Source: Thermosulfurimonas dismutans (lineage in GTDB: Bacteria; Desulfobacterota; Thermodesulfobacteria; Thermodesulfobacteriales; Thermodesulfobacteriaceae). From it: DNA of 32,000 bases. The notes beneath the pieces were generated by a model. It searched no databases. It was not told the DNA's origin and saw only the letters and a list, made by a program, of their open reading frames with translations. A program made the position numbers and the translations under genes. Each line of letters opens with the position of its first letter. Within the stretch, counting starts at the first letter, position 1. The stretch is taken from assembly GCF_001652585.1 (NCBI RefSeq), contig NZ_LWLG01000008.1:30001-62000 (forward strand), given 5' to 3'. Of the stretch, positions 334 to 25,229 are shown one piece after another.

Positions 334-1185
334 CTAATTAAAAGCTTTATCATAAATTTCAGAAAGCAATTTAATTAAGCTTGTTTTATCTTCTACTATA
401 TATGGAATAGTTTTAAAATCTAATTCCAAAACATATCTAAAATACCTTATATTATTTTTAATATTTTCCTTGTTTTTTTCAGAAATCCCTGGTATCCAAA
501 AAACTTTTTTTCTTTTTGCATCTTCATTAAAAAATTGTGAATATATCTCCATTTCGGTTAAACTATACCCTATATATACAAAAATCATATAATTGTTGAA
601 AATTTTTTCCCAACATTCTCGAACTTTCCTAGGTGGATTATGATAAAATTTCGCGTAATCTTCTTCCGCAAATACCCATGATTCCGGTTTATCTATTCTT
701 CCATGAAGATAAATAATTTTGGAGTTAATAGAACAATTTTCAATGGGAATTATACTTATATGATCATCTGATAAATTGAGAGTATTTTGCAAACCTTTAT
801 CAATGTTAGTCGTGATTATTAAAATCTCTTGGTTTAAAAATTTTCCTATAATTTTAAATACTTCTTTATCTAACATATATTCAACTTCTTCAAAAACTTT
901 CTTCATTGTATCTATGTATAAGTATTTATGACATCCTTTAAAGCACTGCATTTTTTGAGGAAATTTAAGATAGGGATCATCTAATAATCTCAAGATATGT
1001 GGCTCCACAACTCCTCTCCATATAAAAATTTCTTTTAATTTCATTATAAGCTCTTCCCACAAAGGATAACCTGCAATTTTTGAAACGCCCGCTCCTAACC
1101 AAAAGCAACATAGTTCTTTATTGCTTTTCAAATTTTCAATTAAAGTCTCTAAATGTATTTCTTCTTCTATAGAATATATAAACAT
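334..1185 (-). CDS. Standalone SIR2-like (SIR2_2 family) NAD-utilising protein with no SLOG or other C-terminal sensor domain
   Basis: ORF 334..1200. Motifs are FWLGAGVSKIAGYPLWEELI (GAGxS dinucleotide loop), IITTNIDKGL (TTNYD-like), IYLHGRIDKPESWVFAEEDY (catalytic LHG) and VYIGYSLTE. The track start at 1200 is GTG; the ATG at 1185 (MFIYSIEEE) is the more likely start. About 283 aa is one SIR2 domain only. Confidence 0.7.
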   Translation of the reverse strand: MFIYSIEEEIHLETLIENLKSNKELCCFWLGAGVSKIAGYPLWEELIMKLKEIFIWRGVVEPHILRLLDDPYLKFPQKMQCFKGCHKYLYIDTMKKVFEEVEYMLDKEVFKIIGKFLNQEILIITTNIDKGLQNTLNLSDDHISIIPIENCSINSKIIYLHGRIDKPESWVFAEEDYAKFYHNPPRKVRECWEKIFNNYMIFVYIGYSLTEMEIYSQFFNEDAKRKKVFWIPGISEKNKENIKNNIRYFRYVLELDFKTIPYIVEDKTSLIKLLSEIYDKAFN

Positions 1186-1295
1186 CTTTTTTACACACAC
1201 TTATTGCCTTTTTTAATCTATTTTTTACTAGTTCAGCTACAGCCCAATAGACTTCTTTCTTCTTCGGTTAAACCGAGGGCGTCAAAAATAATGTG

Positions 1296-3137
1296 TCAAA
1301 TAACTTTATTACACATCCCTTTCACAATTTCAAACCAATTTTTTATTTCTTCCCATGCATTGAGTTCTTCTAAATGACTTTTAGTAATTTTCTGTGCTAC
1401 TTTTCCACAAAGAAGTTTCTTGGCATCTTTTTCTTTTATCCCCTTCTTGTTTGCAACTAACTTTGGAATATCAGCATTATCCCAATCTGAAATATTTCCA
1501 AGAATAATATTAAGCTCAGTTTCAATAAGCTTCTGGGGAATATAATTCTCTATCTCTCTTTTTTTTGTCAAAAGCCCATTTGAACCATCTTTTCGCTGTT
1601 TTACTTTTTCTATTTCATTTTTGTATTTTTCATCTTCATCTCTATCATAAAGATGAAATTCAATTGCATTAGTATTTCTAAAAATGTGACGGTCAATATG
1701 ATTTTTTAGTTGACTACCTCCCATTATATTGAAAGCTAATACCCCCGAATTAATGTAAACACTCAAATCGATTATTTCTTTTAGTTCTGGAATATTTTGA
1801 TTAATATTTATCAAAAATTTTTCGTCAGTTTCTCCCTCAACACACCAAATAACTTTTCCAATAGTTGGCATAATTCCTAAATTTTGTATAATTTTACTAA
1901 GAATATTTTCATCAAAAATTGCAACACTTACAGAGTTATTTTCCTTTTCTATATATTTAATGCTATCAGTTGGAAGTAACCTTATAAAAGAAGGGCTGTG
2001 AGTAGTAATTAACACTTGATAAATATCAGAATTTGCTAAACCTAATAAGCTGTCTAATAAAATTCTTTGTAAATCTGGATGTAAAGAAGTTTCAGGCTCT
2101 TCAATAGCATAAATAACATGAAAGGTACTTTCCTCTTTTCTTTTTTCTTTTTCAGAAATAAAGAAACTAAGAAGAACCAACCTTCTAAATCCACTCCCTC
2201 TTTTATTAAGAGGTACACCGTCATCTGTTTTAAACCCAATTCCCTTATAGACATCTTTCCATTTTAGGTCCACAGCTGAAGGAATATCTGGTTCAATTTT
2301 AGTTTCTTGTTTAGCTAATTTTTTAAATTGTTGTATAGTACTTTCAGCGATTGATTTTATCTGATTTTCAACTTTTTCGGCTATTTTAAGGAGTTGCTCT
2401 TTAATTTCCTCATCATCTTTAAATATTCTTTCAACTGCAATTTTAAGTGGATCCTGAATTTCAGCATCTTGATCAAGATTTTTGCGATCAGAGTGAAAAA
2501 GACCATATATAGGTAAATAATTTTTTAGTTTTTCCCAAATCGCCTTAGCATCTTCTGCGTCCACTTGAATTTCAATCTTTTCAAGTTTTAAATTTCCATC
2601 TTTTTGTTTATAAAATTTTCTTATTGATTCTCTTAAGATTGCATTAATATTTCTGTTGCTACATAATATAGAGTTGTCATTCACAAATTGTTGAAGCTCG
2701 CGCCGTTTCTTTCTTAAAAGGTCTTTAAGGAAATTATCATTAACTGGATGTATACAGGCAATAGTTGTTACTACCTTCAATCTGCCCGAAAATGTAAAGG
2801 TTTTCCATACTTCCAATAACTCATCCTCGTTAAGTAAAAATTCATTTTTAAGATTTGTAGGATATCTTTCATCAATTATCAACTCCTGTGGAAAATTTTT
2901 AAAAACAATACCTATTTTGAAACTATTTTTACCTTCTGCCCGCGCATGGACATTTATATCTTCATGATTCGTTTTAACCACTCCCTTTCCATCGTTAAGA
3001 AAAATATCAATAGCTTCAAGGATAGACGATTTCCCCTGATCATTTTTTCCTATAAAAGCTGTAAAATCATCCAAAGGAATTACAACTTTTCCCTTAAAAG
3101 CTCTAAAATCTTCAAGTATAACTTTCGCAATTTTCAT
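1296..3137 (-). CDS. OLD-family ATP-dependent endonuclease (ABC/AAA_15-21 ATPase plus C-terminal TOPRIM)
   Basis: 613 aa. Walker A is GKNDQGKSS, Walker B region is YAIEEPETSLHPDLQ, and ITTHSPSF follows. C-terminal TOPRIM signatures are VIWCVEGETDEKFL (Glu) and HLYDRDEDE (DxD). No UvrD-like partner is adjacent. The start overlaps the stop of the upstream 73-aa ORF by 4 nt. Confidence 0.8.
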   Translation of the reverse strand: MKIAKVILEDFRAFKGKVVIPLDDFTAFIGKNDQGKSSILEAIDIFLNDGKGVVKTNHEDINVHARAEGKNSFKIGIVFKNFPQELIIDERYPTNLKNEFLLNEDELLEVWKTFTFSGRLKVVTTIACIHPVNDNFLKDLLRKKRRELQQFVNDNSILCSNRNINAILRESIRKFYKQKDGNLKLEKIEIQVDAEDAKAIWEKLKNYLPIYGLFHSDRKNLDQDAEIQDPLKIAVERIFKDDEEIKEQLLKIAEKVENQIKSIAESTIQQFKKLAKQETKIEPDIPSAVDLKWKDVYKGIGFKTDDGVPLNKRGSGFRRLVLLSFFISEKEKRKEESTFHVIYAIEEPETSLHPDLQRILLDSLLGLANSDIYQVLITTHSPSFIRLLPTDSIKYIEKENNSVSVAIFDENILSKIIQNLGIMPTIGKVIWCVEGETDEKFLININQNIPELKEIIDLSVYINSGVLAFNIMGGSQLKNHIDRHIFRNTNAIEFHLYDRDEDEKYKNEIEKVKQRKDGSNGLLTKKREIENYIPQKLIETELNIILGNISDWDNADIPKLVANKKGIKEKDAKKLLCGKVAQKITKSHLEELNAWEEIKNWFEIVKGMCNKVI

Positions 3138-3355
3138 TCTCCTTCACCTCTTTCTAACAACTTACACTTTTGAATATTATCCTTTTTAAAACAGATGTGT
3201 TTTAAAAAAACATTTTTCTCTATTAGGCCAATTTCTTTTGGGGTTAAATTATAAAGTTTGCAAACTAAACGGTCTATTTGTTTCTCAAGGGCGGTGGTGT
3301 CGGCGGAGCAGCTGTTGGTTTGGTTTAAATAAAGAATTTTAAATTCTGCAAACAT
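3134..3355 (-). pseudogene. 73-aa ORF carrying only the C-terminal tail motif of type IIG/PglX-like methyltransferases; probable relic of a deleted or replaced gene
   Basis: The sequence ...ADTTALEKQIDRLVCKLYNLTPKEIGLIEKN... matches the terminal adt..LE..ID.LVY.LYgLT.eEI.iiE tail found at the extreme C-terminus of Eco57I/MmeI/PglX-type enzymes. No methyltransferase body precedes it. The ATG is 1 nt after the Res-like stop and the stop overlaps the OLD ATG, so it may still be translated. Confidence 0.4.
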
Positions 3356-3356: not shown

Positions 3357-6300
3357 TTATATTATTTTTTCAAACATTTTCTCAATGTATGTCTCCTTGT
3401 CATCCTTTTGAAAAAGGACATGGCGATTTTCGAGTTCTTCTTTAGTAAGGCCCCACCATTTGATATCGCTGTAAAGAGTATAAGAAACGATAAAAGAATG
3501 GAGCTTCAACTGAGGATCACCTAATTTGCGTTCTATTTCCTTGATGCTCTGATAAAATCTCAACTTGGGATCATTAGGGCCTTCACGTTTTCGGATTCCC
3601 TTGGGATCAATAAAGGCTACATGTTGAATATCTGGTAGAAGTAGCCAAAGAATAAAATCGGGGTAAAAATTTCCGGCCTCAAAAAACCCTATTCCTCTGC
3701 GGCTACGATTGCGTAAAAGATAAAGCTCCTTATTTTGGAAAAAGTCTCTATTTTTCTTGTAGAAATTCCGCAAGTCGAATAGAAAATCCCTTTCACTTTC
3801 GGAATCTAAAATCACAGGCCTTACTTCAATAAAATCTCCTCGAATATAAAGTAAAGGTTGATATAAATGGCGCCCAAAATTGATAGCTAAAATGTTTTCA
3901 AATTCGAAATCCCGTTTAAACGTTCCAGACTGGACTAGGTTCTTTAGCTCCTCCAACTTTTTCACAATATCTTCTCGTGAAGCTTCGATATAAATACGAT
4001 ACTTTTCAAAAAAGTTCGGATCGTCTGGTCTTAGTTCGGAAACTTCGAGATATTCATTCTCCCATTCACGCTTGCAATATGAATAATGTCTATCTAAATA
4101 CTTTTTGAGAAGGGTTACCGCAATTTCCTGCCAACGACGAACTTGTTCAAAACTTTTAAATTCCATTTCTTCCCGGGGGATGTAAAGCTCGTACCACGAT
4201 TTATCGGTCAGGAGCTTTGGGATTTCGTCTCTCTCAAGCCTTACATTGTGCCAGGAACGTTCGGCTTTATATTCTTGAAGCTCAAAGTAAATTTGGTCGA
4301 TATCGAGAAAAGCAACGTGTTTTTCTTCGAAGAAACAAAGGTCTTTCTCTGCCCTTTGTTTGGAACCTATTCCAGCGCCACTTTCCAAAGCCTGAAGGCG
4401 GGGATACCAGTCTACAACTACTTTGTAACGTCTTAAGTATTCGGTTACTTCTCCAAAGTAAGGTTTCGGGCCATTGCGCTTAAAATCGATCCCTTCTTTT
4501 AAACGAACAATCTTTAATGGTCGGCTGCTGTTAAAATTTTTGACTACAGGAAGAATGAATTCAATGCGATCTTCATTGGTCGGGAGACCTTCTTCCTCAA
4601 GATATTCTTTAAATTGCCGCATGTAATCGGCTCTAACTCCGAAAACATTTAGCGTTTCCAAAATCTCAATATATTTAGGCGGTTCAATTCCTTCCAAACG
4701 GCGGCTTCGTTTGAGGCAGTAATCTTTACCTTTCAAGCGCACTCCGCGGCCGAATAGCTGAATAATTTGAGCTCCTTCTTTTTTTCCAATATTCATCAAG
4801 CCCATGGTGCTTACACGCCAGCTGTTCCAGCCCTCGGTAAACTTACGGGAGCCGATGAGAATGTTCACTGTGGAATCTTCCTCGTTGAGATTATGAAAGA
4901 GACTTCCAGAAATTACCTTTTCAGTAATAACCAGATTAGGATGGTTTTCACAAAGTTTCAGTAAATTCCCTGGATCACCTACATTGATAACACCAAAGGG
5001 TTCGTTATCTCCCACTTTAATGGCGATTTCGCCCTCAGCGTCTTTCAAATGTTCTAGATGCAGAGCGCCTGGAGCCTTGGTATTGAAAACGATTTCCAAA
5101 ATGTCGTGATAGACCTCTTCGGCTGAAAGTTTAAGAGTATTCAAATAGCGGAAAACCCCAGCAAAGAGTTCGTGGCCTTTCTTGTCCAAAAGTCCGGAAC
5201 GTCCCTGGAGAAGCTGTTCAATAATCTCTATACTTTCGGAACGATTTTTTATGAAATTTGCCAAAAAGAGCAAAATATCAAGAACGTCTGAAACTTTTCG
5301 GCCATGTTGTGTGCGTACAGCATTTACGCTGCCACCTACAAAAACCCATAAGGGCTTGGCTAAAAGGTAAGGCCGAAATTCTTCTTTTTTATCCAGGTAA
5401 AGTCTTAGTTGTTGATAGAAGGTAAGAAGCCCGGCGGTAAGATATTTTTTGCGTATGACTTCGTCGGAATCGTCTTCCAAATTGAGGATGCGATAATCCT
5501 TACCGTAACCATCTTGATAAAAATAGCGATAGGAATAGTCAAAGATGATACACTTGGCGTAAAGAGCTTCCAGTTCTTTATCGCCTTTGACGGCTTGGCC
5601 AAAAGTGGCGGAATATTCAAAGGAAAAGCCCTTCTCACAGAGTTTATCGCGCCGCGAAAGCCATGAACTTTCTTTTCCGCCGGAGGCTCCGCGGTGCCCT
5701 TCATCTACGAGGACAAGATTATTCCCTTCAAAGGTCTCTGGGGGGATGGTTTTTTCGCCGGCTTCTTCGCGAAGTTTGTGAATATCTATAATCAGGACTG
5801 TCTCCCGAGCAAAGAGCCCTCCACTTTCCTTACGGAAGATCTCCGCCGGAATGCCGGAAAGATTAAATTCTTCCAGGTGTTGAAGGGAAAGCCCTTCATT
5901 CGGCGTAAGCAAGATAATGCGGTTCAATTCTTCTGGCTTTCCATATAACCTAAGGTAGTGCAGATATTGCAGGAGGTTCACGTGCATTAAAAGTGTTTTT
6001 CCGCTTCCCGTGGCCATCCAGAAGACCAGTTTGTTGAGATCTCCCTTTTCGAAAGGTTTAAGTTCTTCCTCGGGATAATTTTCCTTGAAACGCTCAAGAT
6101 AAGCATTCAGAGAATTGAGTAGCCCCTCGAGGTTTCGAAAATAGCGGTCCAGATAAATCTCCGTGAAAAGCAAAGCCAGATATTGGAAATATTTGGGATA
6201 AAGGACATGGCCTAAACGATTACGATTTTCGGTTATTTTTCTCCAATGGCGCACAATGTTTTCATCGTAACGAAGAAGATCCTCTGGTGTTAAAGGACCA

Positions 6301-6506
6301 GTACCCTCAATTTGCTTCACCAGCTCATGATAGAATTTAGTGACATTGTTTTCGTCAAAGCCTTCGAGTTCTGGCCGCTTCAGGGCTTGAGCCAGACTAT
6401 CAAAAGAATCTTTGCCAAAAAGAGATAAAACCCAGCGATTTAATACCAGCCGCTTTTCGAAAGGCAATTTAGGTTTTGATTGATGTTTAGTTCTTTTCTT
6501 CGGCAT
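3357..6506 (-). CDS. Type III restriction Res-like SF2 helicase with C-terminal PD-(D/E)xK nuclease
   Basis: 1049 aa. Helicase motifs are WMATGSGKTLLMH (I), LVLVDEGHRG (II, DEGH), YSATFGQ (III) and QLFGRGVRL (VI). The C-terminus has GNFYPDFILWLL...VAFIDPKGIR, which matches the Y-x-PDF ... (D/E)-x-K-G pattern of Res-type endonuclease domains. Confidence 0.8.
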   Translation of the reverse strand: MPKKRTKHQSKPKLPFEKRLVLNRWVLSLFGKDSFDSLAQALKRPELEGFDENNVTKFYHELVKQIEGTGPLTPEDLLRYDENIVRHWRKITENRNRLGHVLYPKYFQYLALLFTEIYLDRYFRNLEGLLNSLNAYLERFKENYPEEELKPFEKGDLNKLVFWMATGSGKTLLMHVNLLQYLHYLRLYGKPEELNRIILLTPNEGLSLQHLEEFNLSGIPAEIFRKESGGLFARETVLIIDIHKLREEAGEKTIPPETFEGNNLVLVDEGHRGASGGKESSWLSRRDKLCEKGFSFEYSATFGQAVKGDKELEALYAKCIIFDYSYRYFYQDGYGKDYRILNLEDDSDEVIRKKYLTAGLLTFYQQLRLYLDKKEEFRPYLLAKPLWVFVGGSVNAVRTQHGRKVSDVLDILLFLANFIKNRSESIEIIEQLLQGRSGLLDKKGHELFAGVFRYLNTLKLSAEEVYHDILEIVFNTKAPGALHLEHLKDAEGEIAIKVGDNEPFGVINVGDPGNLLKLCENHPNLVITEKVISGSLFHNLNEEDSTVNILIGSRKFTEGWNSWRVSTMGLMNIGKKEGAQIIQLFGRGVRLKGKDYCLKRSRRLEGIEPPKYIEILETLNVFGVRADYMRQFKEYLEEEGLPTNEDRIEFILPVVKNFNSSRPLKIVRLKEGIDFKRNGPKPYFGEVTEYLRRYKVVVDWYPRLQALESGAGIGSKQRAEKDLCFFEEKHVAFLDIDQIYFELQEYKAERSWHNVRLERDEIPKLLTDKSWYELYIPREEMEFKSFEQVRRWQEIAVTLLKKYLDRHYSYCKREWENEYLEVSELRPDDPNFFEKYRIYIEASREDIVKKLEELKNLVQSGTFKRDFEFENILAINFGRHLYQPLLYIRGDFIEVRPVILDSESERDFLFDLRNFYKKNRDFFQNKELYLLRNRSRRGIGFFEAGNFYPDFILWLLLPDIQHVAFIDPKGIRKREGPNDPKLRFYQSIKEIERKLGDPQLKLHSFIVSYTLYSDIKWWGLTKEELENRHVLFQKDDKETYIEKMFEKII

Positions 6507-6512: not shown

Positions 6513-6983
6513 TTATTTTATAGCGCTCAAAAGATTCTCGGCCCGGATTTTTCTGTACTTCCTATTTCGAGGTTGCCGACCGTGTGACCCACCTGCAATT
6601 ATTACAAAAGTCCTCGAAGGATTTATTTGAAGCCCTAGATTTTCAAAAAGATAGCGGGCTCCTCTTTCTTTATTTTCAAGCTCGGCTTCTTCATGTTTCC
6701 CAAGTTCAAGCAGAAAGAATTTGACCCGGATCAACCCAGATTGTAGCTTGGCATATATCAATAATATGTCCGGCAAAGCTACAGATGAATCCAATTCAGC
6801 AAAGTGCTTCAGACATGGCATATGATGCCTTTTTATATCAATATTTACCATCAGGATAAGCTCGTCCGGTTCGATGGTGGGGAAAGAAACGGTTACTCCT
6901 TTTTCTTTAATAGAATTACCTCTTATCAGGCACTGAAAGAGGCGAAAAAGCCCTATTTCACTGCTCTCTCTTAAGAATTTCAT
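6513..6983 (-). CDS. Hypothetical 156-aa protein, partner of the upstream ATPase; no family recognised
   Basis: The ORF start overlaps the ATPase stop by 26 nt. GGGGGA lies 8 nt upstream of the ATG. The only motif-like stretch is LPDILLIY...FFLLELGKH, a weak and unproven PD...E..K-like pattern. Coding status rests on ORF length and operon context. Confidence 0.5.
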   Translation of the reverse strand: MKFLRESSEIGLFRLFQCLIRGNSIKEKGVTVSFPTIEPDELILMVNIDIKRHHMPCLKHFAELDSSVALPDILLIYAKLQSGLIRVKFFLLELGKHEEAELENKERGARYLFENLGLQINPSRTFVIIAGGSHGRQPRNRKYRKIRAENLLSAIK

Positions 6984-8436
6984 CCTGAAGTTCCCCCAGA
7001 AGACCTAGTTTTTCCCAAAGGGCTTCAGAGACTTGCGAAAATGTGCTCCAGTCAATATCAACCTCCGGGACTTCTTTAGGAATCTTCCGGATGTCTTCTA
7101 CCTGGCCGTCCGTCCGGAAAAAATAGGCCGAAAATCTGGAAGGGTCCAACAAGGCCTCCTCAGGCACCTCAAAAGGAGGGGCTTTAAGAATATTTTTTAA
7201 GCGTTCTTCTAGAGAAGAAAGACCGTTTTCTTTTATTTTTTCGCGGATTCGATAAGACCAAGCCAGAAAATTGAAGGTGTCAAGGATGTAAGGGCTGTGG
7301 GTGGTCAATAGGACTCGTAGGCCCAGGTTGACCGCCATGGCTAGGGCTATGGCCAGAATCACCTGAGCTTCAGGATGCAGATGCATTTCCGGCTCATCTA
7401 TCACCAGAAAGGCCCCTTCGGGAGCGCTTCTCAAAAACTTCTCCAGGGGAAGCAGGGCCTTAACCCCCGAACTGGCTCCGGAAATTTTTATCTCTCCTTC
7501 TCCAAAATTGAACCAAAATTCATCTTTTTTGAAATTAATTCTTCCTTTAAGTAATTTTTGCTCTAGAAGAGCTATCACTTTATCATAAACTTGAGAGACT
7601 TTTTTCCTCTCACTAAGCAAAAGAAACGTTAAAAAATCTTCAAAGACTTCCGGAAATTCGATATATTGTAAAAGAGAAAAAAGTTTTTTGCGCCATTTTT
7701 TGATAGATATATTTTCTCTCCATAATTGTGTGAGCTGATTTTTCAAGACAAACCATTGACGATAAAAAAGAAAAGACGTGCGTTCGGAAGGAATTATTAA
7801 ATTATGTCTAGGAAATCCTAAAAAATAAGCAAATTCTTCGCAAAATGTCTCTTCAAAAAAATAGTACTCAGTATCTGTATCATATTCTTCCAGATATTCT
7901 CCAAAAACATGTTCGTCTTGACTGTCATAAGGTATATAGACTTCAAAAATATTACCATCTTTTTTCAAGAAAGCAGAATAAAATAATCTACCAACTTCTG
8001 CTCCTTCCAGAGTATTTTCATCTATCTCTCCTACTATTCCAGAAATAGGAATATCACCCTCAAATTCCAATTTTTGTACCTTTTCTTCTTTTGTAATCAA
8101 GGATATTTCAAGTTTAGGTATTTTATTCTCTATACCGAAATATTTTCGCCAAAAATTGGGTAGCATCGATTCTGCAATTTCTTTTTTCCAAGCTTCTATC
8201 CATTGTTCTTTGAGTTCTTCAAAATTGAATTTGAGACGCTCATGTAAAAAAAGCTCGGAAATCTTTTCTTCGCCCAGGCCGCACTGGTCAGGATAGGTGT
8301 TCAGTAAGGCGTGTATCAGATAAGCGGTATATGTTTTTCCGGTATTGTTCGGTCCAATAAAGACCGTAAGAGGTCGCCAAACGATCCGAGAATCTTTTAC
8401 TGGCCCTAACCGTTTAATGTCAAGAATTAACTCCAT
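6958..8436 (-). CDS. ABC-type AAA_21/AAA_15 family ATPase (same superfamily as OLD N-domain, RloA, AriA and PtuA-type defense ATPases)
   Basis: 492 aa. Walker A is GPNNTGKTY, Walker B plus signature is FLVIDEPEMHLHPEAQ, and LLTTHSPYILD follows. AGGAG RBS is upstream. A long variable middle region lies between the two ATPase half-sites. Confidence 0.8.
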   Translation of the reverse strand: MELILDIKRLGPVKDSRIVWRPLTVFIGPNNTGKTYTAYLIHALLNTYPDQCGLGEEKISELFLHERLKFNFEELKEQWIEAWKKEIAESMLPNFWRKYFGIENKIPKLEISLITKEEKVQKLEFEGDIPISGIVGEIDENTLEGAEVGRLFYSAFLKKDGNIFEVYIPYDSQDEHVFGEYLEEYDTDTEYYFFEETFCEEFAYFLGFPRHNLIIPSERTSFLFYRQWFVLKNQLTQLWRENISIKKWRKKLFSLLQYIEFPEVFEDFLTFLLLSERKKVSQVYDKVIALLEQKLLKGRINFKKDEFWFNFGEGEIKISGASSGVKALLPLEKFLRSAPEGAFLVIDEPEMHLHPEAQVILAIALAMAVNLGLRVLLTTHSPYILDTFNFLAWSYRIREKIKENGLSSLEERLKNILKAPPFEVPEEALLDPSRFSAYFFRTDGQVEDIRKIPKEVPEVDIDWSTFSQVSEALWEKLGLLGELQDEILKREQ

Positions 8437-8457: not shown

Positions 8458-11400
8458 TTATACATCTCTTACTTCAAACATTCTTTTCAAAAATTCTTCT
8501 TCAATAAGCCTGACTTTCCAGGTATGGTCTTCGCGGCGGAGATTTTCTAAGAAATTATCGCCGTTCACATAGATGATGTCGAACTCCTGGTCTCTGGTGT
8601 TGTACCCCTGCTTTCTAAACCATTCATTAAGCTTCTCAGCGTCCATCTCTTTAGTATTGCGCCAGAGGATAAGGACTTTCTCTCCTTGTGGATTTTCGCC
8701 GGTGATCACGCGCACGCCACGGATATGATCTACAGTCTTTACTCTCAGACCTATAAGATAGTTGAAGGTCTCCACCATATCCACTTTGACCCGGCGGGTA
8801 TCGCCCACAGTAGTGGTGGCAATTTCCATTTCGTAATTGAAAGGATCTTCAAAGCGTTCGACATTCAAAAGGCTTTCCCGAGTTTCAAACTCCAGCATGT
8901 AGCGCAGGATGTAATCCTCACGAAACTCCCGATTTTCATAAAGGAGTTTTTGTTGAATTTCGGTGCGTTTGAGTTCCAGATTGTTAAGGGTATCTTCGTA
9001 AGATTCTAGACGAATGTATTTGAGGAAGTGGCTTATGCCGTTTAGATTGCCGTCCTTATCCGGCTTGGGCTTGCCGTCCTTCCAATCACGGGAATAAATA
9101 ATCTTCTTTATACGGGGAAGGAGCACGGTGTCGAAATAATCCGCCACCTCCACCAGGATATATTTCCTTTTCCCGCCATCTTCGCGATTGAGATTGATCA
9201 CCGCATGTGCCGTGGTGCCGGAGCCGGCGAAGTAGTCGAGGATGAGGTCTGAATGGTTTGATACTGCATAAATTGCATCAGATACTGTATAAATAGACTT
9301 AGGATACAAATTTTCGTCAAATTTTAATCCTAATTCGGTTAATATACGAGTTCCATAATCTCCGGCTATATACTTCGGATCATCCCAAACAGTTTTAAAT
9401 TGTTTTTCTGTATTAGCTTTTAAAATCTGAATTTCGCCCTCACGAGTAATATGGACTTTAAGTAAATGCTTGATTTTTTCTATAGAATCTCTTGAATATC
9501 TCCATTTTCTTTCTATTCCTTGTTGATCTACTGGATAAATAGCTACTATTTGGTCATTTATGTAAATATTAGCTTTTCCTGGATGAAAATTCTCATCACA
9601 TACATCACCAAAACCTACAATGTTTTTATTTTTAATGTTTACATAAATAGGATAAAAACAATTTCTTGCTGTTTCTCTTTCGGATTCTCTGCCCCATTTT
9701 CTGAGATTCACGTATTCCCATTCTTCTTTTGGAATAGGCTTTCCATGTATTTTTGGTAATTTATGTGGAATACAAAAATAAGCAAAATCATGATTATAAG
9801 AAAAATATTTTCCCTGAATTCCTTTTTTATTGTGAATAATGGAAACGCAAATTTTTTCAAAATGATCTTCTGGAAAATGTAGTGATAGCAAACGGCCAAG
9901 TAATTCCTGTTCATTTTCATCAATAGCTATTATATGGCTTCCATCTTCTGTAGCAAAAATTCGACTTAAGGCGAGTCGATTATCTATCAATGTAAGCCAA
10001 GAGGAATGTTTATAATCATTCTTGTAAAGAATTTCCGTTGTTTTTGAATTATACGGCGGATCAATGTAAATACACTTAACCTGCCCCCTATACCGCTCGA
10101 GCAAAAGATTTAACGCCTGGAAGTTTTCGCCGTGGACGAGAAGACCGTCAAGCTCCTCGTCCAGGTTATCAAAAGAGGAAATAAGCTTGAGCTTGAACTC
10201 TTCGTCAAAATGGCGGGTGTCTATCACCAGATGGGGATGGGCTTTCAAAAATTCTATGGTCGGCGGTTCTGACCAGCCCGGCCGAACTAGATCGCCCTTT
10301 ATCTCATGGACATGGTAAAGTTTTTTCCACTCTTCGATTTGGTCCTGATTTTCAAGGATACGTTCAATGAGCCAGTTTCGTTTTTCCTCGTCCTCAATGG
10401 CAAAAATACGGTCAAGGGTTATGCAATATTGCGTCTCCCAGATAAATTTCTTTTTGAGCCAGAGTTTTTTCTGAAAGTTTTCAAGCTGGGCGAGAAAATC
10501 GATGATCTTGTGCCCGATGCGGCGGATAGCTTTAACTTTAGCGAGATATTGTTCTACCCGTGGCGCAGACTCGTTTTCTATATCGTCCAGGTGAACGACC
10601 TCATTCTTGATGTAAAAATCGAGCTCCCGGCGTAAGAATCCGCCCAGGTCTTTGTGGATGAAATAGTCAAAGGTGTTTCGGGCAGTAAAAGCGGCCAGAT
10701 GTTTCTCTAGAAGGGTTCGGTCTTTATTCTTTGGAGTAGGACGCGGCTCCTTGAGTTCTTTTTTCCAATCCTCAAAGCCATCGGTTTCCAAAAGAATAAA
10801 CTCGGCAATAGCCTTATTGATTTCTTCTTGTTTGCGGTCGTCCGGCCGGTATTCAAAACGAATAACCAGTTCGCCGGCTTCCTCCGCGATGGGATCGGCT
10901 TCGTGGAGCACAAAGCGACGTTTTTTAGAATTGGTAGTTTTTATATTGTCCCGGTCAGCCTCGGCTTGGACAACCTCGAAACGGACCCTTTTACCGGAAC
11001 GAAGTCTAAAAGCGTAATTGCGGAAATATTCGCTAGTTTTGATGTAATATTGATCGTAATTGGCCCAGTAAAGTTTTACTTCTTCACCGTTGTAAGGAAT
11101 GGCGTAAACATTTTCCTTATAGCGGCGTTTTGAAATGAAATCTCCCTCATCGTAGTAGCGACTGAAGAAGGTGTAGAGATGGGAATAGACTTCCTCTTCA
11201 AGCGCCGCTTGATCCGTCGTTCTTTGTAACTGGGCACGAAGCTCTTTGACTTTTGGAGATTGCTCAGGATCAACGCCAGCGTCTTTAAGCTGGTTTTCCA
11301 ATTTGATAAGCTCTTTTTCCAGAGCCTGCCGGCGCTCCTCGTCCATCTGGCCCAAAATTTCTTTCACTTGGGGGAGAAGATCTTCATTAAGAAAGCGAGA

Positions 11401-11514
11401 AATTTCTTCTCTCTTGGCATTCATGATGCGGTAGATGCCGAAATCAAGATCAGCGTGGTCAAATTGAAAAAGCTCGGCCAGAAGTTTTTTTAGTTTTTCA
11501 AACTGCTGGGACAT
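8458..11514 (-). CDS. Large beta-class N6-adenine/N4-cytosine DNA methyltransferase (type III Mod-like) with long N- and C-terminal extensions
   Basis: 1018 aa. Motif IV IYIDPPYN (around 10060) precedes motif I ILDYFAGSGTTAHAV (around 9240), which is beta-class order. WLTLIDNRLALSR and IIAIDENE resemble Mod-type methyltransferases. The N-terminus DLDFGIYRIMN is typical of large Mod-like enzymes as far as I recall. GGGGGAGG RBS is upstream. Confidence 0.85.
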   Translation of the reverse strand: MSQQFEKLKKLLAELFQFDHADLDFGIYRIMNAKREEISRFLNEDLLPQVKEILGQMDEERRQALEKELIKLENQLKDAGVDPEQSPKVKELRAQLQRTTDQAALEEEVYSHLYTFFSRYYDEGDFISKRRYKENVYAIPYNGEEVKLYWANYDQYYIKTSEYFRNYAFRLRSGKRVRFEVVQAEADRDNIKTTNSKKRRFVLHEADPIAEEAGELVIRFEYRPDDRKQEEINKAIAEFILLETDGFEDWKKELKEPRPTPKNKDRTLLEKHLAAFTARNTFDYFIHKDLGGFLRRELDFYIKNEVVHLDDIENESAPRVEQYLAKVKAIRRIGHKIIDFLAQLENFQKKLWLKKKFIWETQYCITLDRIFAIEDEEKRNWLIERILENQDQIEEWKKLYHVHEIKGDLVRPGWSEPPTIEFLKAHPHLVIDTRHFDEEFKLKLISSFDNLDEELDGLLVHGENFQALNLLLERYRGQVKCIYIDPPYNSKTTEILYKNDYKHSSWLTLIDNRLALSRIFATEDGSHIIAIDENEQELLGRLLSLHFPEDHFEKICVSIIHNKKGIQGKYFSYNHDFAYFCIPHKLPKIHGKPIPKEEWEYVNLRKWGRESERETARNCFYPIYVNIKNKNIVGFGDVCDENFHPGKANIYINDQIVAIYPVDQQGIERKWRYSRDSIEKIKHLLKVHITREGEIQILKANTEKQFKTVWDDPKYIAGDYGTRILTELGLKFDENLYPKSIYTVSDAIYAVSNHSDLILDYFAGSGTTAHAVINLNREDGGKRKYILVEVADYFDTVLLPRIKKIIYSRDWKDGKPKPDKDGNLNGISHFLKYIRLESYEDTLNNLELKRTEIQQKLLYENREFREDYILRYMLEFETRESLLNVERFEDPFNYEMEIATTTVGDTRRVKVDMVETFNYLIGLRVKTVDHIRGVRVITGENPQGEKVLILWRNTKEMDAEKLNEWFRKQGYNTRDQEFDIIYVNGDNFLENLRREDHTWKVRLIEEEFLKRMFEVRDV

Positions 11515-11535: not shown

Positions 11536-14394
11536 TTATATAACCGACCATCTAATAGTAAAAAGAGGTTCTCGATAAGTCTTCTGTCTAAGTCTTCGCT
11601 CAAGTTGTTCGATAAGTTCATCCCGTTTGGCCAAAATTTCATCCTCGATATCAAAAATTTTTTGTCGTAAGCGGCGCTTTTTCCGTTCAAGCTCTTGAAG
11701 TTTACGCTGAATTTTGTGTTGTTCTTCAAGAGTGGCGGCCAAACGAGCCTGGCGCCTTAGGGCTTTTATCTGTTCTTTGGTTTGGTTAAGTTCCTGCTCA
11801 GCAGCCAAAATCATATCATCTGCCCATTTTTCAAGTTGTTCTCTTGCTTCCTGAAAGTAGCGGTTGTTTTCTTCAAGAGAGCGTGCAATGGTGGCCTGAA
11901 CATGACGTTCGGTCTCTGCCTCTAGGCGTTTGGCTACTTCTTGCGGAATTTGGACAGGTCCTTCCACTTCTCCACCGCAAAGGAAAAGTTTTTCGCATAT
12001 TTCCTGGTCGAGAGATTGACCCTCGTCAGTAACACCGGAAAAAAGTAAGTATTCCTCTTTTTGAAAAGATTCTATTACCAGCCTTTGTAAATGTATCCAA
12101 CCGGATTGACCTTTAAGGTTTTCAATCACAGTAATACGCGCAGGGTGGTTTGTTATATCAAAAATTACATGCATGGGAGGGGTAGGAAGCTTTTGGCCTT
12201 CGTTCAGAACATACTCTCCTAAGGGATGAGAAAAACGATAAAGAAACCGTGCTCCTATCTTTTTAGAACTTTGAGAGGTTTTCAAATAATAACGGCCGAG
12301 GGGAATTCCTTCTATCGGAGAACGATAGAGCTCAAAACTCAAAGATTTATCATCAAATTTGGCGCAATCTTTAAGAATATTCTTGGTAAGACCCCAAAAC
12401 ATACGACTTAGACGATCAAGATATTGCTCTGTTTCGCTTAAGCGGAGTTTTAGGCGTTCGTGAACTTCTTCGTCAAAATGTTCCAAAAGTTTGCGGCGGG
12501 TTTCAGCTAAAGTGCTCTTGATCTTTTCATCAAGCTCTTTTTGGAGCTTACGAAAGGCTTCATCGATTTCTTCTGGGGTACGGCAAGTTTGGTATATTTC
12601 CAAAACCCTTTTTTCGAAATCTACGCCTGATTCTATAGCTCCAAGGACTTCATCCGAAGCACCAAAAAGTCCAGTGAAAAGACGAAATTTTTCGGTCAAA
12701 AGCTCGTAAACTCTTTGATCTGCAGCGTTGCGCTGGTTTAAAAAATTGATTACCACTACATCAAACTTTTGGCCATAACGATGGCAACGACCGATACGCT
12801 GTTCGATACGCTGGGGATTCCAAGGAAGATCGTAGTTAATCACCAGAGAACAGAACTGGAGATTTATTCCTTCCGCCCCGGCTTCCGTGGCAATCAAAAT
12901 TTCGGCATAGTCTCGGAAATGTTCAATTAGAGCCGTTCTGATGTCCACTTGCTTATTACCGGTTATACGGCCGGTGCCGGCGTTAACTTCAAGCCATTTT
13001 TCATAAATGCGATGGCTTTCAGGGTCTGTATTAGTGCCACTAAAAGTGACTATGCGCCCAGCATAGCCGTTGGCTTCTAGGAAATCTTTGAGAAACTGTT
13101 GAGTACGGCGAGACTCTGTAAAAATAACGGCTTTTCGAGCCGCCCCCATTTCCTCCATTTTTTTAAAGCCAATTTCTAAAGCCTTAAGAAGAGCTCGGGC
13201 CTTACTATCTATGCCTATGCTTTTCGCCCAGCGAATGAGGGAGTCAAGCTCAGAAATTTCGGCTTCAAGTTTTTGTAAATCGATTTCTTCTGTGGAGAGT
13301 TCTTCCTCCGGCTCAGTGTCTTCTTCAATAAGTTCGCTTTCGAGCTCTTCCTCATTGAGGATGCGTTCGAGCAGGTCGCTATCATCTTTTTCTTTGAGCC
13401 CATCTCGAAGTTCGATAAGTCTGTCACGTAAAGCCTCTAGCATGGCGGCTACTGCTCTCGGAGAAGAAGCCAAAAGTTTTCTGGCAATTAGAATCATGAG
13501 ATGACGATGTCGCTTTGGAAAGGCGTAAGTATCTTCACGCTGTAGATAGGATGATATAGCTTCATAAAGGCCTTGCTCGTCATCCGAAGGAGTAAAGGGT
13601 TGGGTAATAAGACGCCTTTCAGTGTAGCGAATATATTCGGTTACCTGACGCCTAAGAGTTCGATAACAAAACTTTTGAAGCCTTTCTCGTAGCTCTAACA
13701 AATTACCGTTTCGTCCCATATATTGGGCACGGAAAGCTTTTAGATCTCCAAAAATGCGTTCGTCTATCAAAAGAGAAAGTCCATAGAGTTCGAGTAGAGA
13801 GTTTTGAAGCGGAGTGGCCGTCAAAAGAATTTTAGGACGGTCTTCTAAAGCAAATTTTATATTTTGTCCGATCCGATTCGAAGGCCGATAAAGATTTCGC
13901 AGTTTATGGGCTTCGTCTATAACTACTAGATCCCAATTAACTGCGCGAATGTAATGGGCCATCCGGCTGGCATAGTGCATAGAAGTAATAACAATTCGGT
14001 CACAATCGAAAGGATTGGGATTTCCTTGTGCCATAGATTCTTTGAAAGATTTAGCATCAAGAATAATTGTAGGCAGGAAAAATTTTTCCTCTAATTCAAG
14101 AGACCATTGTTTGCGAATAGAAGCTGGACAAATAATCAAAAGTTTACGCTTGCGTTCTGCCCAAAACTGGCATAGTACTAACCCGGCCTCGATAGTTTTT
14201 CCAAGACCTACTTCATCAGCCAAAATAACTCCTTTGGAAATAGGAGAACGCAAAGCAAAAAGAGCGGCTTCAATTTGGTGAGGATTAAGATCAACCGCGG
14301 CATCAAAAAGAGAGTGCGATAGACGGGTTAATTCTTGGCTACTACGTTGTTTAATAGCGTAAGCGTAATATTTAGCGTGATAGTCGGTAATCAT
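11536..14394 (-). CDS. SNF2/SWI2-family helicase with C-terminal extension ending in a coiled coil
   Basis: 952 aa. Motifs are LADEVGLGKTIEAG (I), LVVIDEAHKLRN (II), LLLTATPLQNSLLELYGL (III) and GAEGINLQ...DLPWNPQRIEQRIGRCHRYGQK (V-VI). It is the first gene of the co-directional array. Confidence 0.85.
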   Translation of the reverse strand: MITDYHAKYYAYAIKQRSSQELTRLSHSLFDAAVDLNPHQIEAALFALRSPISKGVILADEVGLGKTIEAGLVLCQFWAERKRKLLIICPASIRKQWSLELEEKFFLPTIILDAKSFKESMAQGNPNPFDCDRIVITSMHYASRMAHYIRAVNWDLVVIDEAHKLRNLYRPSNRIGQNIKFALEDRPKILLTATPLQNSLLELYGLSLLIDERIFGDLKAFRAQYMGRNGNLLELRERLQKFCYRTLRRQVTEYIRYTERRLITQPFTPSDDEQGLYEAISSYLQREDTYAFPKRHRHLMILIARKLLASSPRAVAAMLEALRDRLIELRDGLKEKDDSDLLERILNEEELESELIEEDTEPEEELSTEEIDLQKLEAEISELDSLIRWAKSIGIDSKARALLKALEIGFKKMEEMGAARKAVIFTESRRTQQFLKDFLEANGYAGRIVTFSGTNTDPESHRIYEKWLEVNAGTGRITGNKQVDIRTALIEHFRDYAEILIATEAGAEGINLQFCSLVINYDLPWNPQRIEQRIGRCHRYGQKFDVVVINFLNQRNAADQRVYELLTEKFRLFTGLFGASDEVLGAIESGVDFEKRVLEIYQTCRTPEEIDEAFRKLQKELDEKIKSTLAETRRKLLEHFDEEVHERLKLRLSETEQYLDRLSRMFWGLTKNILKDCAKFDDKSLSFELYRSPIEGIPLGRYYLKTSQSSKKIGARFLYRFSHPLGEYVLNEGQKLPTPPMHVIFDITNHPARITVIENLKGQSGWIHLQRLVIESFQKEEYLLFSGVTDEGQSLDQEICEKLFLCGGEVEGPVQIPQEVAKRLEAETERHVQATIARSLEENNRYFQEAREQLEKWADDMILAAEQELNQTKEQIKALRRQARLAATLEEQHKIQRKLQELERKKRRLRQKIFDIEDEILAKRDELIEQLERRLRQKTYREPLFTIRWSVI

Positions 14395-14876: not shown

Positions 14877-17165
14877 CTATCCCTTCGCACTCATTACGAT
14901 TACCTGCCAGCCCTCCTTGGTAAGGGAATGCAATATCTCCATCGTCTTTTGGGTGCGGTCATGGTCAAAATAGGCGAAGGGTTCGTCAAGCAGCAAAAAG
15001 GCCTTGCGGTCGAAAAAGAGACGAATCAGGGCCAATCGGGCGGAGAGAAGGAGCTGAGAAGAGGTTCCGTCAGAAAGCTCGTTAATGGGAAAGGATCTTC
15101 CGTCCTTACGGATAGCTCTCCATTTGGTTTTAAAGGTGTCGCCGTCGAAAAAGAGGCTTTCGGTCTTGAATTTTACGCCAGTGTAATTTCCGTAGGTAAT
15201 ACGGGAGAAGAGGTCGCTTACGCTGGATTCGAACTCTCCTAAATATCGACGATTAATCTCCCCCCTCAACTCCGCAAGCACCTCAAGCCCAAACCGCAGG
15301 ACTCTTTCCATATTTAGCATGCGCCGGAGCTTCTCTTCAAGCTCTCTTTTCTGGAAAAGTAGGTCGTCAAGCTCTTTTTTATCCGGCTCTTTTTGGGTCA
15401 AGCCTTCATAAAGGCTCTTTTTCTTCTCTAGCTCCACTATTTCTTCCCGTAGTTCTTCAAGCCGCCTTTCTTTCTCTTCGATTTTGGTTTTCAAATCTTC
15501 GAGATCTAGGTGCGAACACTCTTCTTCAAACTCTTTAGCTTCCTTAAGAGTGAGGTTTTCTATCTCTTTTTCGAGGGATTTAAGCGCCTCCTCTTGACGA
15601 TCCCTCTCATCCTCAAACTTCTGTCTTTTAGGTTCAAGCTCGCTTTTCCGTTTTTGAATCTCCTCAAGCCCTTTTTCTACTTCCTCAAGCCTTCGGCTTA
15701 ACGCTTCTCTTTCTTTTTCCTTTTTTTCTATTTCTTCGTCGATATTCTCCAATTCCTTTATTTTGTCCGATAAGGCTCTGGCTTTCTCTCGCAGTCGGAC
15801 CAGATCTTCCTCGGTATCGAATCTTGTGGAAAGACGCTCCTTTTGTTCAAGTAAACTTATCAAGTCCTCCAGGGTTTCAATGCTTCCGTAAGTTTTGGCC
15901 AGTTTTTCGACTTTTTTCTTTACTTTTTCTATCTCCTGGGAGGTATAGATTTGAAGCGAAAGATCCCGGTAGCGAATAAGGGCTTCGCCTTCGAATTCGT
16001 AAGCTTCCCCCGGGCCTAATTTAGCTTGATCTCCAACCCCGACTTTGTCTTTAGCTTCCAAGACCCTGATGATGCCCCTTGACCTATGGCACAGCCTTCG
16101 ATAGGTCTCCCAATCTAAAAAATCGGATCTCAGTTCTTTGGAACTCCGGTTTTGAAACTTCCCGAGTTTCCGGTTTAGTTCTTCTATCTCTTGTAAAAAT
16201 TTAATCTTTTGGTTGGTATCTTTGAGTTCCTGTTCTGCCTTTATTAACTCAAGTTTTTTCCTGTTTAGCTGGTTGATTTTCTCGAAAACTTCATTTTCTT
16301 GCCTTTTGAGCTTTTCTTTTTCTTCTAGTTTTTCCTTCTCTTTCTGGCCGTATTCTTTCAGTTGTTTTTCAAGGTCTTCAATTTTTTTCTTCAAATCTTT
16401 TATCTTATTTTCCGTTTCCTTGAAGGTGGCATAATTCAGTAATCTTTTGTCTCTTTCAATTTCAGCCTCAAGAGCCGTCTTCGCTTTAATTTTCTCTTCA
16501 AGCTCAGCTTTCGTTTTCTCAAGCTCCTCTTTGTTCCTTCGATATTCCTCGTGTCTTTTAATGGTTTCGGTTAAGCGTTCCTCTGTGCGTTTCAGCTCTT
16601 CCTTGAGGGATTTTTCCTCTTTTCCAAAGGGCCTGCTCTTGAACCTCTGTGTGCTCCCTTTCTGGAAAATGAGTATGTCTTCTAGCAGCTTTTTCACTTC
16701 TTCGATGCTTGCCGATTTGAGGACTGTGTCAAGCAAACTCTTTAGGCCCTTTCCGGTTTCGGTGGCAAGATCCCTTTCCTTTAAGACCAGAAGGCCGTTT
16801 AAGACCGCGGGAAAGAAATGATACCCCTTTCGCTCCAGAAAATCCTCTATGGCCTTGGCTCGGCCGAGATCCGTACCATCGCTTCCCGAAAGCCGCACCG
16901 TTCCGTCCTGAGCATTAACTTTGAGGGTGTAGGTGTGCTCTCCAATCTCGAAGGTTACTTCCAAGACCGGATCTATCTCTTTTCCCTCGGTTCTCTTGGC
17001 CTTGAGTCTTTCCGGGGAAAGTGAAAAGGCGTCTTTTATGCCCTCGATGAGGGTAGATTTTCCCGTCTCATTCGGAGCCGTAAAGACAAAGGGATTGTCC
17101 TTAAACTCAAATTCCCTGTCCTCTAGGATTTTATAGTTTTTGAAGGATACCTTGAGGAGTCTCAT
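14877..17165 (-). CDS. SbcC/Rad50-like (YhaN/SbcE-like) coiled-coil ATPase without a zinc hook
   Basis: 762 aa. Walker A is APNETGKST, followed by a very long K/E-rich coiled coil. The C-terminal signature and Walker B are LSDGTSSQLLLSARLAL...FLLLDEPFAYFD. The protein has only two Cys and no CxxC. GGGGGA RBS is present, 13 nt after the SbcD-like stop. Confidence 0.8.
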   Translation of the reverse strand: MRLLKVSFKNYKILEDREFEFKDNPFVFTAPNETGKSTLIEGIKDAFSLSPERLKAKRTEGKEIDPVLEVTFEIGEHTYTLKVNAQDGTVRLSGSDGTDLGRAKAIEDFLERKGYHFFPAVLNGLLVLKERDLATETGKGLKSLLDTVLKSASIEEVKKLLEDILIFQKGSTQRFKSRPFGKEEKSLKEELKRTEERLTETIKRHEEYRRNKEELEKTKAELEEKIKAKTALEAEIERDKRLLNYATFKETENKIKDLKKKIEDLEKQLKEYGQKEKEKLEEKEKLKRQENEVFEKINQLNRKKLELIKAEQELKDTNQKIKFLQEIEELNRKLGKFQNRSSKELRSDFLDWETYRRLCHRSRGIIRVLEAKDKVGVGDQAKLGPGEAYEFEGEALIRYRDLSLQIYTSQEIEKVKKKVEKLAKTYGSIETLEDLISLLEQKERLSTRFDTEEDLVRLREKARALSDKIKELENIDEEIEKKEKEREALSRRLEEVEKGLEEIQKRKSELEPKRQKFEDERDRQEEALKSLEKEIENLTLKEAKEFEEECSHLDLEDLKTKIEEKERRLEELREEIVELEKKKSLYEGLTQKEPDKKELDDLLFQKRELEEKLRRMLNMERVLRFGLEVLAELRGEINRRYLGEFESSVSDLFSRITYGNYTGVKFKTESLFFDGDTFKTKWRAIRKDGRSFPINELSDGTSSQLLLSARLALIRLFFDRKAFLLLDEPFAYFDHDRTQKTMEILHSLTKEGWQVIVMSAKG

Positions 17166-17178
17166 AGCTGTTTCCCCC

Positions 17179-18252: not shown

Positions 18253-18299
18253 CGGTAAACTCCTTTTCTTTTGGTTTGGTCTTTATTTTATAACACCTC

Positions 18300-18322
18300 A
18301 CCGTTCAATAAGTTTGAACGGT
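18300..18322 (-). terminator. Perfect 9-bp stem hairpin immediately after the DUF2779 stop codon
   Basis: ACCGTTCAA (18300-18308), loop TAAGT, TTGAACGGT (18314-18322). The minus-strand trailing sequence is A/U-rich rather than a clean U-run. A T-run (CCTATTTTT) follows on the plus strand, so it may act bidirectionally. Confidence 0.45.
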
Positions 18323-18323
18323 C

Positions 18324-21001: not shown

Positions 21002-21035
21002 GGCGCTCCTCCTTTTAGGGTTTTCACCCCTGTCT

Positions 21036-21069
21036 AAAAAGAAGAAAAAAGCCCCCTCCGAAGGAGCGG
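21036..21069 (-). terminator. Candidate intrinsic terminator downstream of the Dam-like gene and its trailing gap
   Basis: The minus strand reads CCGCTCCTTCGGAGGGGGCTTTTTTCTTCTTTTT. The stem is short and interrupted (CTCC/GGAG with a UUC loop, plus 2 outer pairs) and is followed by a long U-rich run. It sits just upstream of the strong RBS/ATG at 21001. Confidence 0.35.
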
Positions 21070-22808: not shown

Positions 22809-22922
22809 AATTCGGGTCTCTCCTCGCAGGGTGCTTTTAGTCCTTTTAAAAAAAAGAAGCCCCGAGGAAAAATCGTGCGGTGGAAGTATGTGAAGATGTT
22901 GGGCAGGCTTGGGCGAGAGACT

Positions 22923-23551: not shown

Positions 23552-23662
23552 CTCATTCCCTCCTCAAGAATTGGTATGAATAAATCATACCACAAATTAC
23601 TTCTGTCTCCTAGAAGGCTTCCATTCGTTTTCTTCCTGATGGCGAAGGCACAAAAATGAAAC

Positions 23663-25188: not shown

Positions 25189-25229
25189 AACCAATCAGTT
25201 CTTAAAGTTATAAAGGGCCTACGGCCTTG

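Follow-up and report, generated by a model that had tools for sequence, protein, structure and literature searches.

What do a gene for an ABC-type ATPase and a small overlapping open reading frame (ORF) do between the methyltransferase gene and the restriction gene of a restriction-modification (RM) operon? This question is raised by a stretch of 32,000 nucleotides (nt) from Thermosulfurimonas dismutans (contig NZ_LWLG01000008.1, positions 30,001 to 62,000), the whole of which is called the window here. Five genes lie head to tail on its minus strand and encode an SNF2 helicase, the methyltransferase Mod, the ATPase, a protein of 156 amino acids (aa) and the restriction subunit Res. The ATPase gene (6958..8436, minus strand, ATG start, 492 aa) and the small ORF (6513..6983, minus strand, ATG start) are both present between Mod and Res, as the original prediction had placed them. 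They overlap by 26 nt, whereas 21 nt separate Mod from the ATPase gene and 6 nt the small ORF from Res. Because the gaps between the genes are so short, all five form one operon. We consider it probable that the pair is a self-contained nuclease-nucleoside triphosphatase (NTPase) anti-phage cassette of the PD-T4-4/WonAB kind, which was inserted at the Mod-Res junction.

The first step is whether the small ORF is a gene at all. Homologues next to related ATPases, on which the idea of a functional pair had hinged, do exist: nine were seen, with 38-86% identity, every one of them in the overlapping position behind a homologous ATPase gene. Across the full-length homologues the overlap with the ATPase stop amounts to 23-26 nt, and the N-terminal 44 residues of the small protein are kept in all of them, so that the small ORF is indeed a genuine gene. 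The public annotation (P0002) gives a “hypothetical protein” of 112 aa with its start at Met45. Because the upstream 44 residues and the overlap with the ATPase gene are conserved, this 112-aa NCBI gene model is too short, and judged from these alignments the small gene was probably mis-started in GenBank. The family of the window protein, in the following called the window clade, is tiny: when 1.84 billion representative proteins were scanned exhaustively with HMMER, 6 clusters at 50% identity came up, nearly all of them from metagenomes of hydrothermal vents.

The second step is whether the pair belongs to the RM enzyme or is a guest in its operon. A scan with the Res protein, with one genome per species, yielded 80 loci (L016-L095) from many phyla; in 60 of them the stretch retrieved includes Mod as well as Res, usually with an SNF2 gene before them. 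The SNF2-Mod-Res triad is widespread across phyla, some archaeal metagenome-assembled genomes included. Neither the window ATPase nor the small protein occurs in any of the 60 related operons having both Mod and Res. The gap between Mod and Res is at most 110 bp in 30 of these loci, 280-770 bp in 13 and at least 1 kb in 17 (28% of the 60). Elsewhere the junction holds unrelated cargo, such as an AAA_21 ATPase with a DUF4276 protein (1.5e-48) in L040, an AAA_15 ATPase with a 245-aa protein in L001, AIPR in L016, RhuM in L033 and GmrSD_N proteins in L026, which agrees well with the claim of the original prediction that the module had been inserted. The SNF2-Mod junction is likewise variable, with a gap of at least 0.5 kb in about 16 loci; L016, for example, has an HTH-M78 protein there and L030 a GmrSD_N protein.

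Even among the relatives from vents the content of the Mod-Res gap changes. From Mod to Res, the pair comes first in locus L001, and behind it lie GmrSD_N, a second ATPase pair and a TumE toxin-antitoxin pair; locus L007 has a TumE pair followed by the ATPase pair. This toxin-antitoxin-like pair consists of a 100-aa protein and a TumE-domain protein, and in the vent lineages it recurs within the Mod-Res gap on one or the other side of the ATPase pair (L001 7807-8524; L007 199-853; L182 152-505). The survey that had been proposed, namely whether the pair also occurs inside other RM loci or on its own, showed the window-clade pair in further RM loci and beside other systems as well: upstream of a PLD-SNF2 protein in L008, upstream of a HEPN_Swt1-DUF499 protein in L179-181, behind an AAA_14/DUF4143 gene in L009 and behind a TumE pair in L182-184, there with no large gene after it within the contig. 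The wider pair family also stands alone, in chromosomes among housekeeping genes, on small plasmids and in a P2-like phage. In the P2-like Vibrio phage 1.202.O (L185 1535-3566) a PD-T4-4-like pair lies between the CI repressor and the integrase. Moreover, some small plasmids of E. coli and Klebsiella, which are non-mobilisable, carry hardly any cargo other than such pairs; one of them (L097) is a ColE1-type E. coli plasmid of 4.8 kb.

One could assume instead that the ATPase and its partner are integral accessory subunits, e.g., a loader or regulator, of the SNF2-Mod-Res enzyme of this lineage. This would go along with their orientation, which is that of the RM genes, with the tight packing at junctions of 6-26 nt, with a G+C content (GC) and a GC3 equal to those of the flanking RM genes, and with the four genomic contexts of the clade that lie within this RM family. 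However, we consider such a role quite improbable, since the pair is missing from 60 of 60 related operons, half of them with Mod and Res directly adjacent, and is also found beside unrelated systems; in the wider family, pairs occur by themselves on plasmids of 4.8 kb, in chromosomes and in a phage. Furthermore, Res of L007 is 94% identical to that of the window, whereas the ATPase has 67% and the partner 53% identity, which points to separate histories or evolutionary rates. Because it is absent from 60 related operons and found in other settings too, the pair is cargo and not core: a mobile cassette lodging inside or beside large helicase/methylase defence operons. A recent separate acquisition of the pair was considered by base composition, which gives no signal for it, the pair having a GC of 0.39-0.40 compared with 0.41-0.42 in the flanking RM genes and a matching GC3.

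What kind of cassette this is can be read from the ATPase first. It matches Pfam AAA_15 (8e-23) and AAA_21 (1e-17) and no other Pfam domain. Its Walker A (GPNNTGKT), signature (SGASSG), Walker B (IDEPE) and H-loop (TTHSP) motifs are intact, and they are invariant in the family alignment. Among the 118 families matched in PADLOC the best is PD-T4-4_A (PDLC04033, 1.4e-38), followed by PDC-M47A (3e-29), and PD-T4-4_A ranks above AriA, HEC-02A, Old, GajA, and PtuA, which bears out that the protein belongs to the ABC group of OLD, PARIS and Septu, as had been supposed. Four more distant relatives of the ATPase gave the same ranking, again with PD-T4-4_A as best match. For comparison, the bona fide PD-T4-4_A from an E. 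albertii plasmid scores 7.8e-261 with the sister model PDLC04032 and 3.1e-90 with PDLC04033. According to PADLOC, component A of PD-T4-4 is present in the window.

The ATPase is not equally conserved over its length. Compared with that of locus L006 (741-2276), residues 1-40 and 321-492 are 75-97% identical, whereas residues 41-320 reach just 30-52%. The protein is thus a mosaic between close relatives, which suggests recombination or diversifying selection in the insert, the putative sensor region. Residues 41-320 would then be a variable sensor insert, and the conserved core and C-terminus would face the partner.

The partner was more difficult to place. As the original prediction had noticed by eye, it has no TOPRIM, DUF4435 or HNH motif; neither these domains nor DUF4276 or any other were found by Pfam at E <= 10, which leaves it outside the OLD, GajA, AriB, RloB, and PtuB partners. 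PADLOC at E <= 10 and likewise NCBIfam gave no match, and the lone library match, to blaTEM with E = 0.2, is meaningless. A profile search of PDB sequences with the alignment of the small-protein family found none at E <= 10. A TOPRIM protein was also rejected by the lack of an E…DxD pattern, and a HEPN protein was rejected as well, the small protein not being all-helical and having no RxxxxH motif.

The relation became visible through intermediates. Nearly every relative of the ATPase at about 25-35% identity is followed by an ORF that is tightly coupled to it or overlaps with it; such an ORF is present in about 75 of 80 metagenome loci of related ATPases and mostly encodes 160-210 aa. Cyanobacterial partners are longer, with about 300 aa. 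Compared by hhalign, the window family aligns with the partner of locus L011, which has a textbook D…E-L-K motif, with a probability of 94.8% (E 5.6e-8), and the L012-type partner (D…ELK…Q) can be aligned to PD-T4-4_B in a collinear manner across about 140 columns (P = 1.3e-4). In Anabaena sp. PCC 7108 (L014 7439-8329) the partner gene is broken by an in-frame TAA between PD and E-M-K (…PDYMSLYID* … IIEMKGK…) and is probably a pseudogene or the result of a sequencing error; hhalign against the second ORF of this split partner (197 aa) found nothing.

An iterative profile search was seeded with the window family; the sequences searched were the partners of 80 related ATPases, to which 840 shuffled sequences and, from these loci, 568 other ORFs had been added. 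Upon convergence the search had taken in 83 of 84 partners, and its hidden Markov model (HMM) reached genuine PD-T4-4_B proteins from E. albertii and E. coli plasmids (L096, L097, L098) at 1e-12 to 1e-14; the E. albertii plasmid copy was checked with PADLOC as PD-T4-4_B at 6e-108. None of the 840 shuffled controls appeared at E <= 10. Eight of the 568 other ORFs scored, all of them immediately downstream of the ATPase in their own locus, and truly unrelated ORFs were not found at E <= 10. Moreover, the partner from the P2-like Vibrio phage, which was outside the training set, scored 3.6e-6 with the final HMM. The small protein is a member of the PD-T4-4_B superfamily, by remote homology through intermediates and with these controls for specificity. 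PD-T4-4 has been classed as a PD-(D/E)xK nuclease with a P-loop NTPase (bioRxiv 10.1101/2025.07.10.664194), and the literature relates it to WonAB and to operons of an “OLD-ABC ATPase + novel REase”, i.e., restriction endonuclease (PMC12137116). The idea of a new effector fold is not upheld: the partner in essence belongs to a known family after all, PD-T4-4_B, and not to RloB, DUF4276, DUF4435 or HNH.

The predicted structure would fit to this in its topology. The AF2 model of the small protein, made from a 13-sequence alignment, has a pLDDT of 88.4 and a pTM of 0.86 and shows the order helix-strand-strand-strand-helix-strand, as in the restriction-endonuclease fold; strand 2 begins with D72, and strand 3 ends with E93. 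Foldseek, which had been proposed as a check, was run on the predicted structure and gave no significant match in PDB or BFVD; in PDB this applies to the first poor model (pLDDT 65.7) as well as to the good one. The top of the PDB list is shared by ADF-H/gelsolin domains and BamHI/PaqCI at TM <= 0.3. The named BFVD matches, each of them weak individually, are PD-(D/E)XK, Mrr-like, VRR-NUC (twice), MmcB-like, and DUF2726.

The superfamily alignment allows a comparison of the window clade (n = 9) with 82 other members, here in the numbering of the window protein. The motif of the family is D…D…(E/D)xK…Q. Position 49 is Asp in 72 of the 82 others and in all nine clade members, position 72 is Asp in 81 of 82 and in eight of nine, the ninth having Asn, and position 93 is Glu or Asp in 80 of 82 and in the entire clade. 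At position 95, the lysine of strand 3 is present in 80 of the 82 others, whereas all nine clade members have Gly. Position 97 is variable in the others and His throughout the clade. Gln occupies position 101 or 105 in most other members (78 of 82 have a Gln 5-20 residues past the Lys), whereas the clade has Glu101 and Lys105 without exception, and K105 lies on the next helix, close to where the other members have their conserved Gln. The weak LPD…ELGK pattern described earlier is indeed present, and is a degenerate remnant of the PD…(E/D)xK motif of the family.

Several of the results weigh against a nuclease of the PD-T4-4 kind. The PADLOC models PD-T4-4_B and PDC-M47B miss the small protein even at E <= 10; component B of PD-T4-4 is not detected directly, and close and distant relatives of the protein also give no match at E <= 1. 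The direct hhalign comparison of the window family with PD-T4-4_B is weak (P = 0.002, probability 14%), and while the default setting returned a spurious local alignment, the collinear weak one required a more global setting. Foldseek against PDB and BFVD gave nothing better than E = 0.004 with TM <= 0.39. Finally, none of the nine clade members has the catalytic Lys, a residue that WonB cannot do without. Because it is absent in the clade, nuclease activity of the partner is not assured.

The partner might be catalytically dead, with the pair acting as a sensor or adaptor that gates the large NTPase-nuclease encoded directly downstream and does not itself cut nucleic acid. The exchange of Lys for G95 throughout the clade is in favor of this, and in the related WonB the equivalent exchange K71A inactivates the protein, so that the lysine matters there (PMC12137116). 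In addition, the clade pair lies directly 5' of a gene for a helicase/ATPase-nuclease of 1050-1115 aa in three contexts, namely Res (window, L006, L007), PLD-SNF2 (L008), and HEPN_Swt1-DUF499 (L179-181). However, other cassettes stand between the pair and Res in L001, and no large gene follows the pair within the contig in L182-184. Examples of active PD-(D/E)xK enzymes in which this lysine is substituted are BamHI with Glu and BglII with Gln. Because the acidic residues D49, D72 and E/D93 survive as near-invariant positions and three new invariant residues appear, H97, E101 and K105, a remodelled active site is favored over a dead one: the site looks rebuilt rather than decayed, and we consider a dead partner unlikely. 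As far as the sequences go, H97 and/or K105 may have taken over the role of the lost lysine.

A broader idea, which we regard as doubtful, is that the vent clade has made a PD-(D/E)xK nuclease into either an enzyme whose catalytic set is new or has been relocated, or a non-catalytic adaptor. In the first case D49/D72/E93 together with H97/E101/K105 would act without a strand-3 lysine, and substrate or chemistry would differ. In the second case the ABC ATPase would control the large helicase-nuclease encoded downstream (Res, PLD-SNF2, or HEPN-DUF499), which would be a PrrC-like coupling of an embedded sensor and a host restriction enzyme.

For the nuclease-NTPase cassette, which we prefer, the following course can be proposed by analogy with the related systems. 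An earlier insertion would have set the cassette at the Mod-Res junction, so that it would be co-transcribed and co-transferred with the SNF2-Mod-Res operon. The ABC ATPase would dimerise and sense a phage cue with its variable insert (residues ~41-320), while its conserved C-terminal part would hold the small partner with the restriction-endonuclease fold. Binding or hydrolysis of ATP would then license the partner to cut nucleic acid, either DNA of the phage or an RNA which the host requires for translation, the latter as has been suggested for WonB, and the infection would be aborted. In the window clade, as the sequences show, Gly replaces the lysine of the canonical (E/D)xK motif, and H97 and/or K105 would have to stand in during this cleavage.

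Two-gene cassettes of this type also bring to mind addiction modules. The small protein could be a toxin and the ATPase its antitoxin, and the module would mainly stabilise the genomic island instead of sensing phage. The Pfam title of AAA_21 (“putative AbiEii toxin, type IV TA” domain), the TumE-type toxin-antitoxin pairs at the same junction in L001, L007, and L182, and the PD-T4-4 pairs as sole cargo of small ColE1-like plasmids are in line with this. However, experiments on WonAB have ruled out a simple antitoxin model, since WonB is toxic solely when WonA is present and active (PMC12137116), and PD-T4-4 was isolated through selection for phage resistance (PMC9519451). An addiction module is therefore very improbable in our view, and an anti-phage cassette remains the preferred explanation.

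The operon which hosts the cassette starts with the SNF2/DrmD-like helicase (11536..14394, minus strand, 952 aa), the first gene of the conserved triad, with matches to Pfam SNF2-rel_dom (1e-33) and Helicase_C (1e-20) and to DrmD in PADLOC (1e-210). It is followed by Mod (8458..11514, minus strand, 1018 aa), a type III-like DNA methyltransferase (Pfam N6_N4_Mtase, 2.8e-17; PADLOC MTase_III, 4e-233), and, behind the pair, it ends with the type III-like restriction subunit Res (3357..6506, minus strand, 1049 aa), which has a helicase and a C-terminal region (Pfam ResIII, 5e-10; PADLOC REase_III, 3e-239). With an N6_N4 methylase and a ResIII helicase-nuclease in synteny with SNF2 in most of the 80 loci, the host is a type III-like RM system with SNF2. 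DISARM was rejected as host system: the SNF2 protein alone is DrmD-like, with 705 bits for NCBIfam DISARM_DrmD_b, which is under the cut-off of 950 bits, and matches to DrmA, DrmB and DrmC were not found among its neighbours by PADLOC. Hma was rejected as well, the likeness to its helicase being confined to the SNF2 protein.

The operon lies inside a low-GC island, the RM genes and the pair having a GC of 0.39-0.42 compared with 0.53-0.54 in serS and feoB. The likely boundary of the island, at 19919-25189, comprises an AAA_5-type ATPase (19919-21172), an orphan D12-class Dam methylase (21711-22808), a tyrosine integrase (23663-24934), and tRNA-Asn (25114-25189), beyond which serS and feoB follow at the GC of the host (~0.53). 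Just downstream of Res, at 334-3137 on the minus strand, lies a gene pair of very low GC (0.26-0.30), encoding a 613-aa OLD/GajA-like ATPase (AAA_15 2e-72, with a weak DUF4276-like C-terminus) and a 288-aa SIR2_2 protein, which may be a separately acquired OLD-SIR2 two-gene defence system. A 73-aa ORF without matches (3134-3355) is located between this pair and Res. Upstream of SNF2, at 14877-19820 on the minus strand, there are genes for a 762-aa SbcC/LmuB-like SMC ATPase, a 357-aa SbcD-like metallophosphoesterase and a 498-aa DUF2779/Cas4-like protein, which may be a further defence or repair module of the island.

The cassette extends the PD-T4-4/WonAB type of defence by an ABC ATPase with a small nuclease to the thermophilic Thermodesulfobacteria. 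As the partner clade is outside the current Pfam, PADLOC and NCBIfam models, tools that search for defence systems will miss it. Furthermore, the Mod-Res and SNF2-Mod junctions of a widespread triad emerge as insertion hot spots with a high turnover of cargo, and a type III-like host is added to the published picture of “guilt by embedding”. The clean loss of the lysine along with three new invariant residues is a natural experiment, in which the active site of a restriction-endonuclease fold was either rebuilt or retired. The significance would be greater if the remodelled site had a new activity or were coupled to the restriction enzyme of the host.

Among the known systems, PD-T4-4 of E. 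coli (Vassallo et al. 2022, PMC9519451) is closest. As in PD-T4-4, the gene for an ABC ATPase is followed by a tightly coupled gene for a small putative nuclease, the ATPase has its best PADLOC match there, the partner belongs to the same superfamily by transitive profile search, and the motif order D…D…(E/D)x[K]…helix is common to both. However, the window partner has 156 aa compared with about 200 aa and is missed by the PD-T4-4_B HMMs in direct searches, it has Gly in place of the catalytic Lys and H, E, K in place of the Q-x-E helix motif, and the pair is embedded in the RM operon of a thermophile, whereas PD-T4-4 is found on an integrative and conjugative element or a plasmid. WonAB from the WASA-1 prophage of Vibrio cholerae consists of an ABC ATPase and a 16-kDa PD-(D/E)xK variant and acts by abortive infection, with WonB toxicity requiring WonA (PMC12137116). 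The window pair resembles it as an ABC ATPase with a small predicted variant PD-(D/E)xK nuclease of ~16-18 kDa, a likeness that rests on the architecture and on the published description (PMC12137116), and the published model of ATPase-dependent activation, abortive infection and a probable RNA target is the best mechanistic template. In contrast to the window partner, WonB retains its essential K71, and WonAB is prophage-borne and not embedded in an RM operon.

The original prediction had compared the position of the pair to that of PrrC in the EcoprrI hsd locus and of RloC and the rlo genes. This holds true for the location, as in both cases an ABC-ATPase module is lodged between the genes of an RM operon. 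It does not hold for the rest: PrrC combines its ATPase and an anticodon nuclease in one polypeptide, is encoded in a type I locus and is kept latent by the RM enzyme, whereas the window has two proteins, a different effector fold and a type III-like/SNF2 host operon, with no evidence of coupling. A PrrC/RloC-type fusion was rejected on these two separate ORFs, on the type III-like host and on the lack of a PrrC or RloC model among the best 25 of the 118 PADLOC matches. The embedding of defence cassettes in other defence operons has been documented (Payne et al. 2024, bioRxiv 10.1101/2024.01.29.577857). Like the embedded HEC-01/02/03 and PDC cassettes, the window pair, an ABC ATPase with a putative nuclease, is flanked by the genes of a larger helicase/methylase defence system and shares their orientation; among the matches of its ATPase PDC-M47A ranks second, and the PDC-M47B models match the PD-T4-4_B-like partner in L096. 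Unlike these cassettes, it has an SNF2-Mod-Res (type III-like) triad as host, and its partner clade is matched by no PADLOC v2 model. The cassette most likely represents a divergent branch of an already known nuclease-NTPase defence family, without the lysine and at a type of site known before, and its real oddity is the loss of the lysine in a nine-member clade along with new invariant residues.

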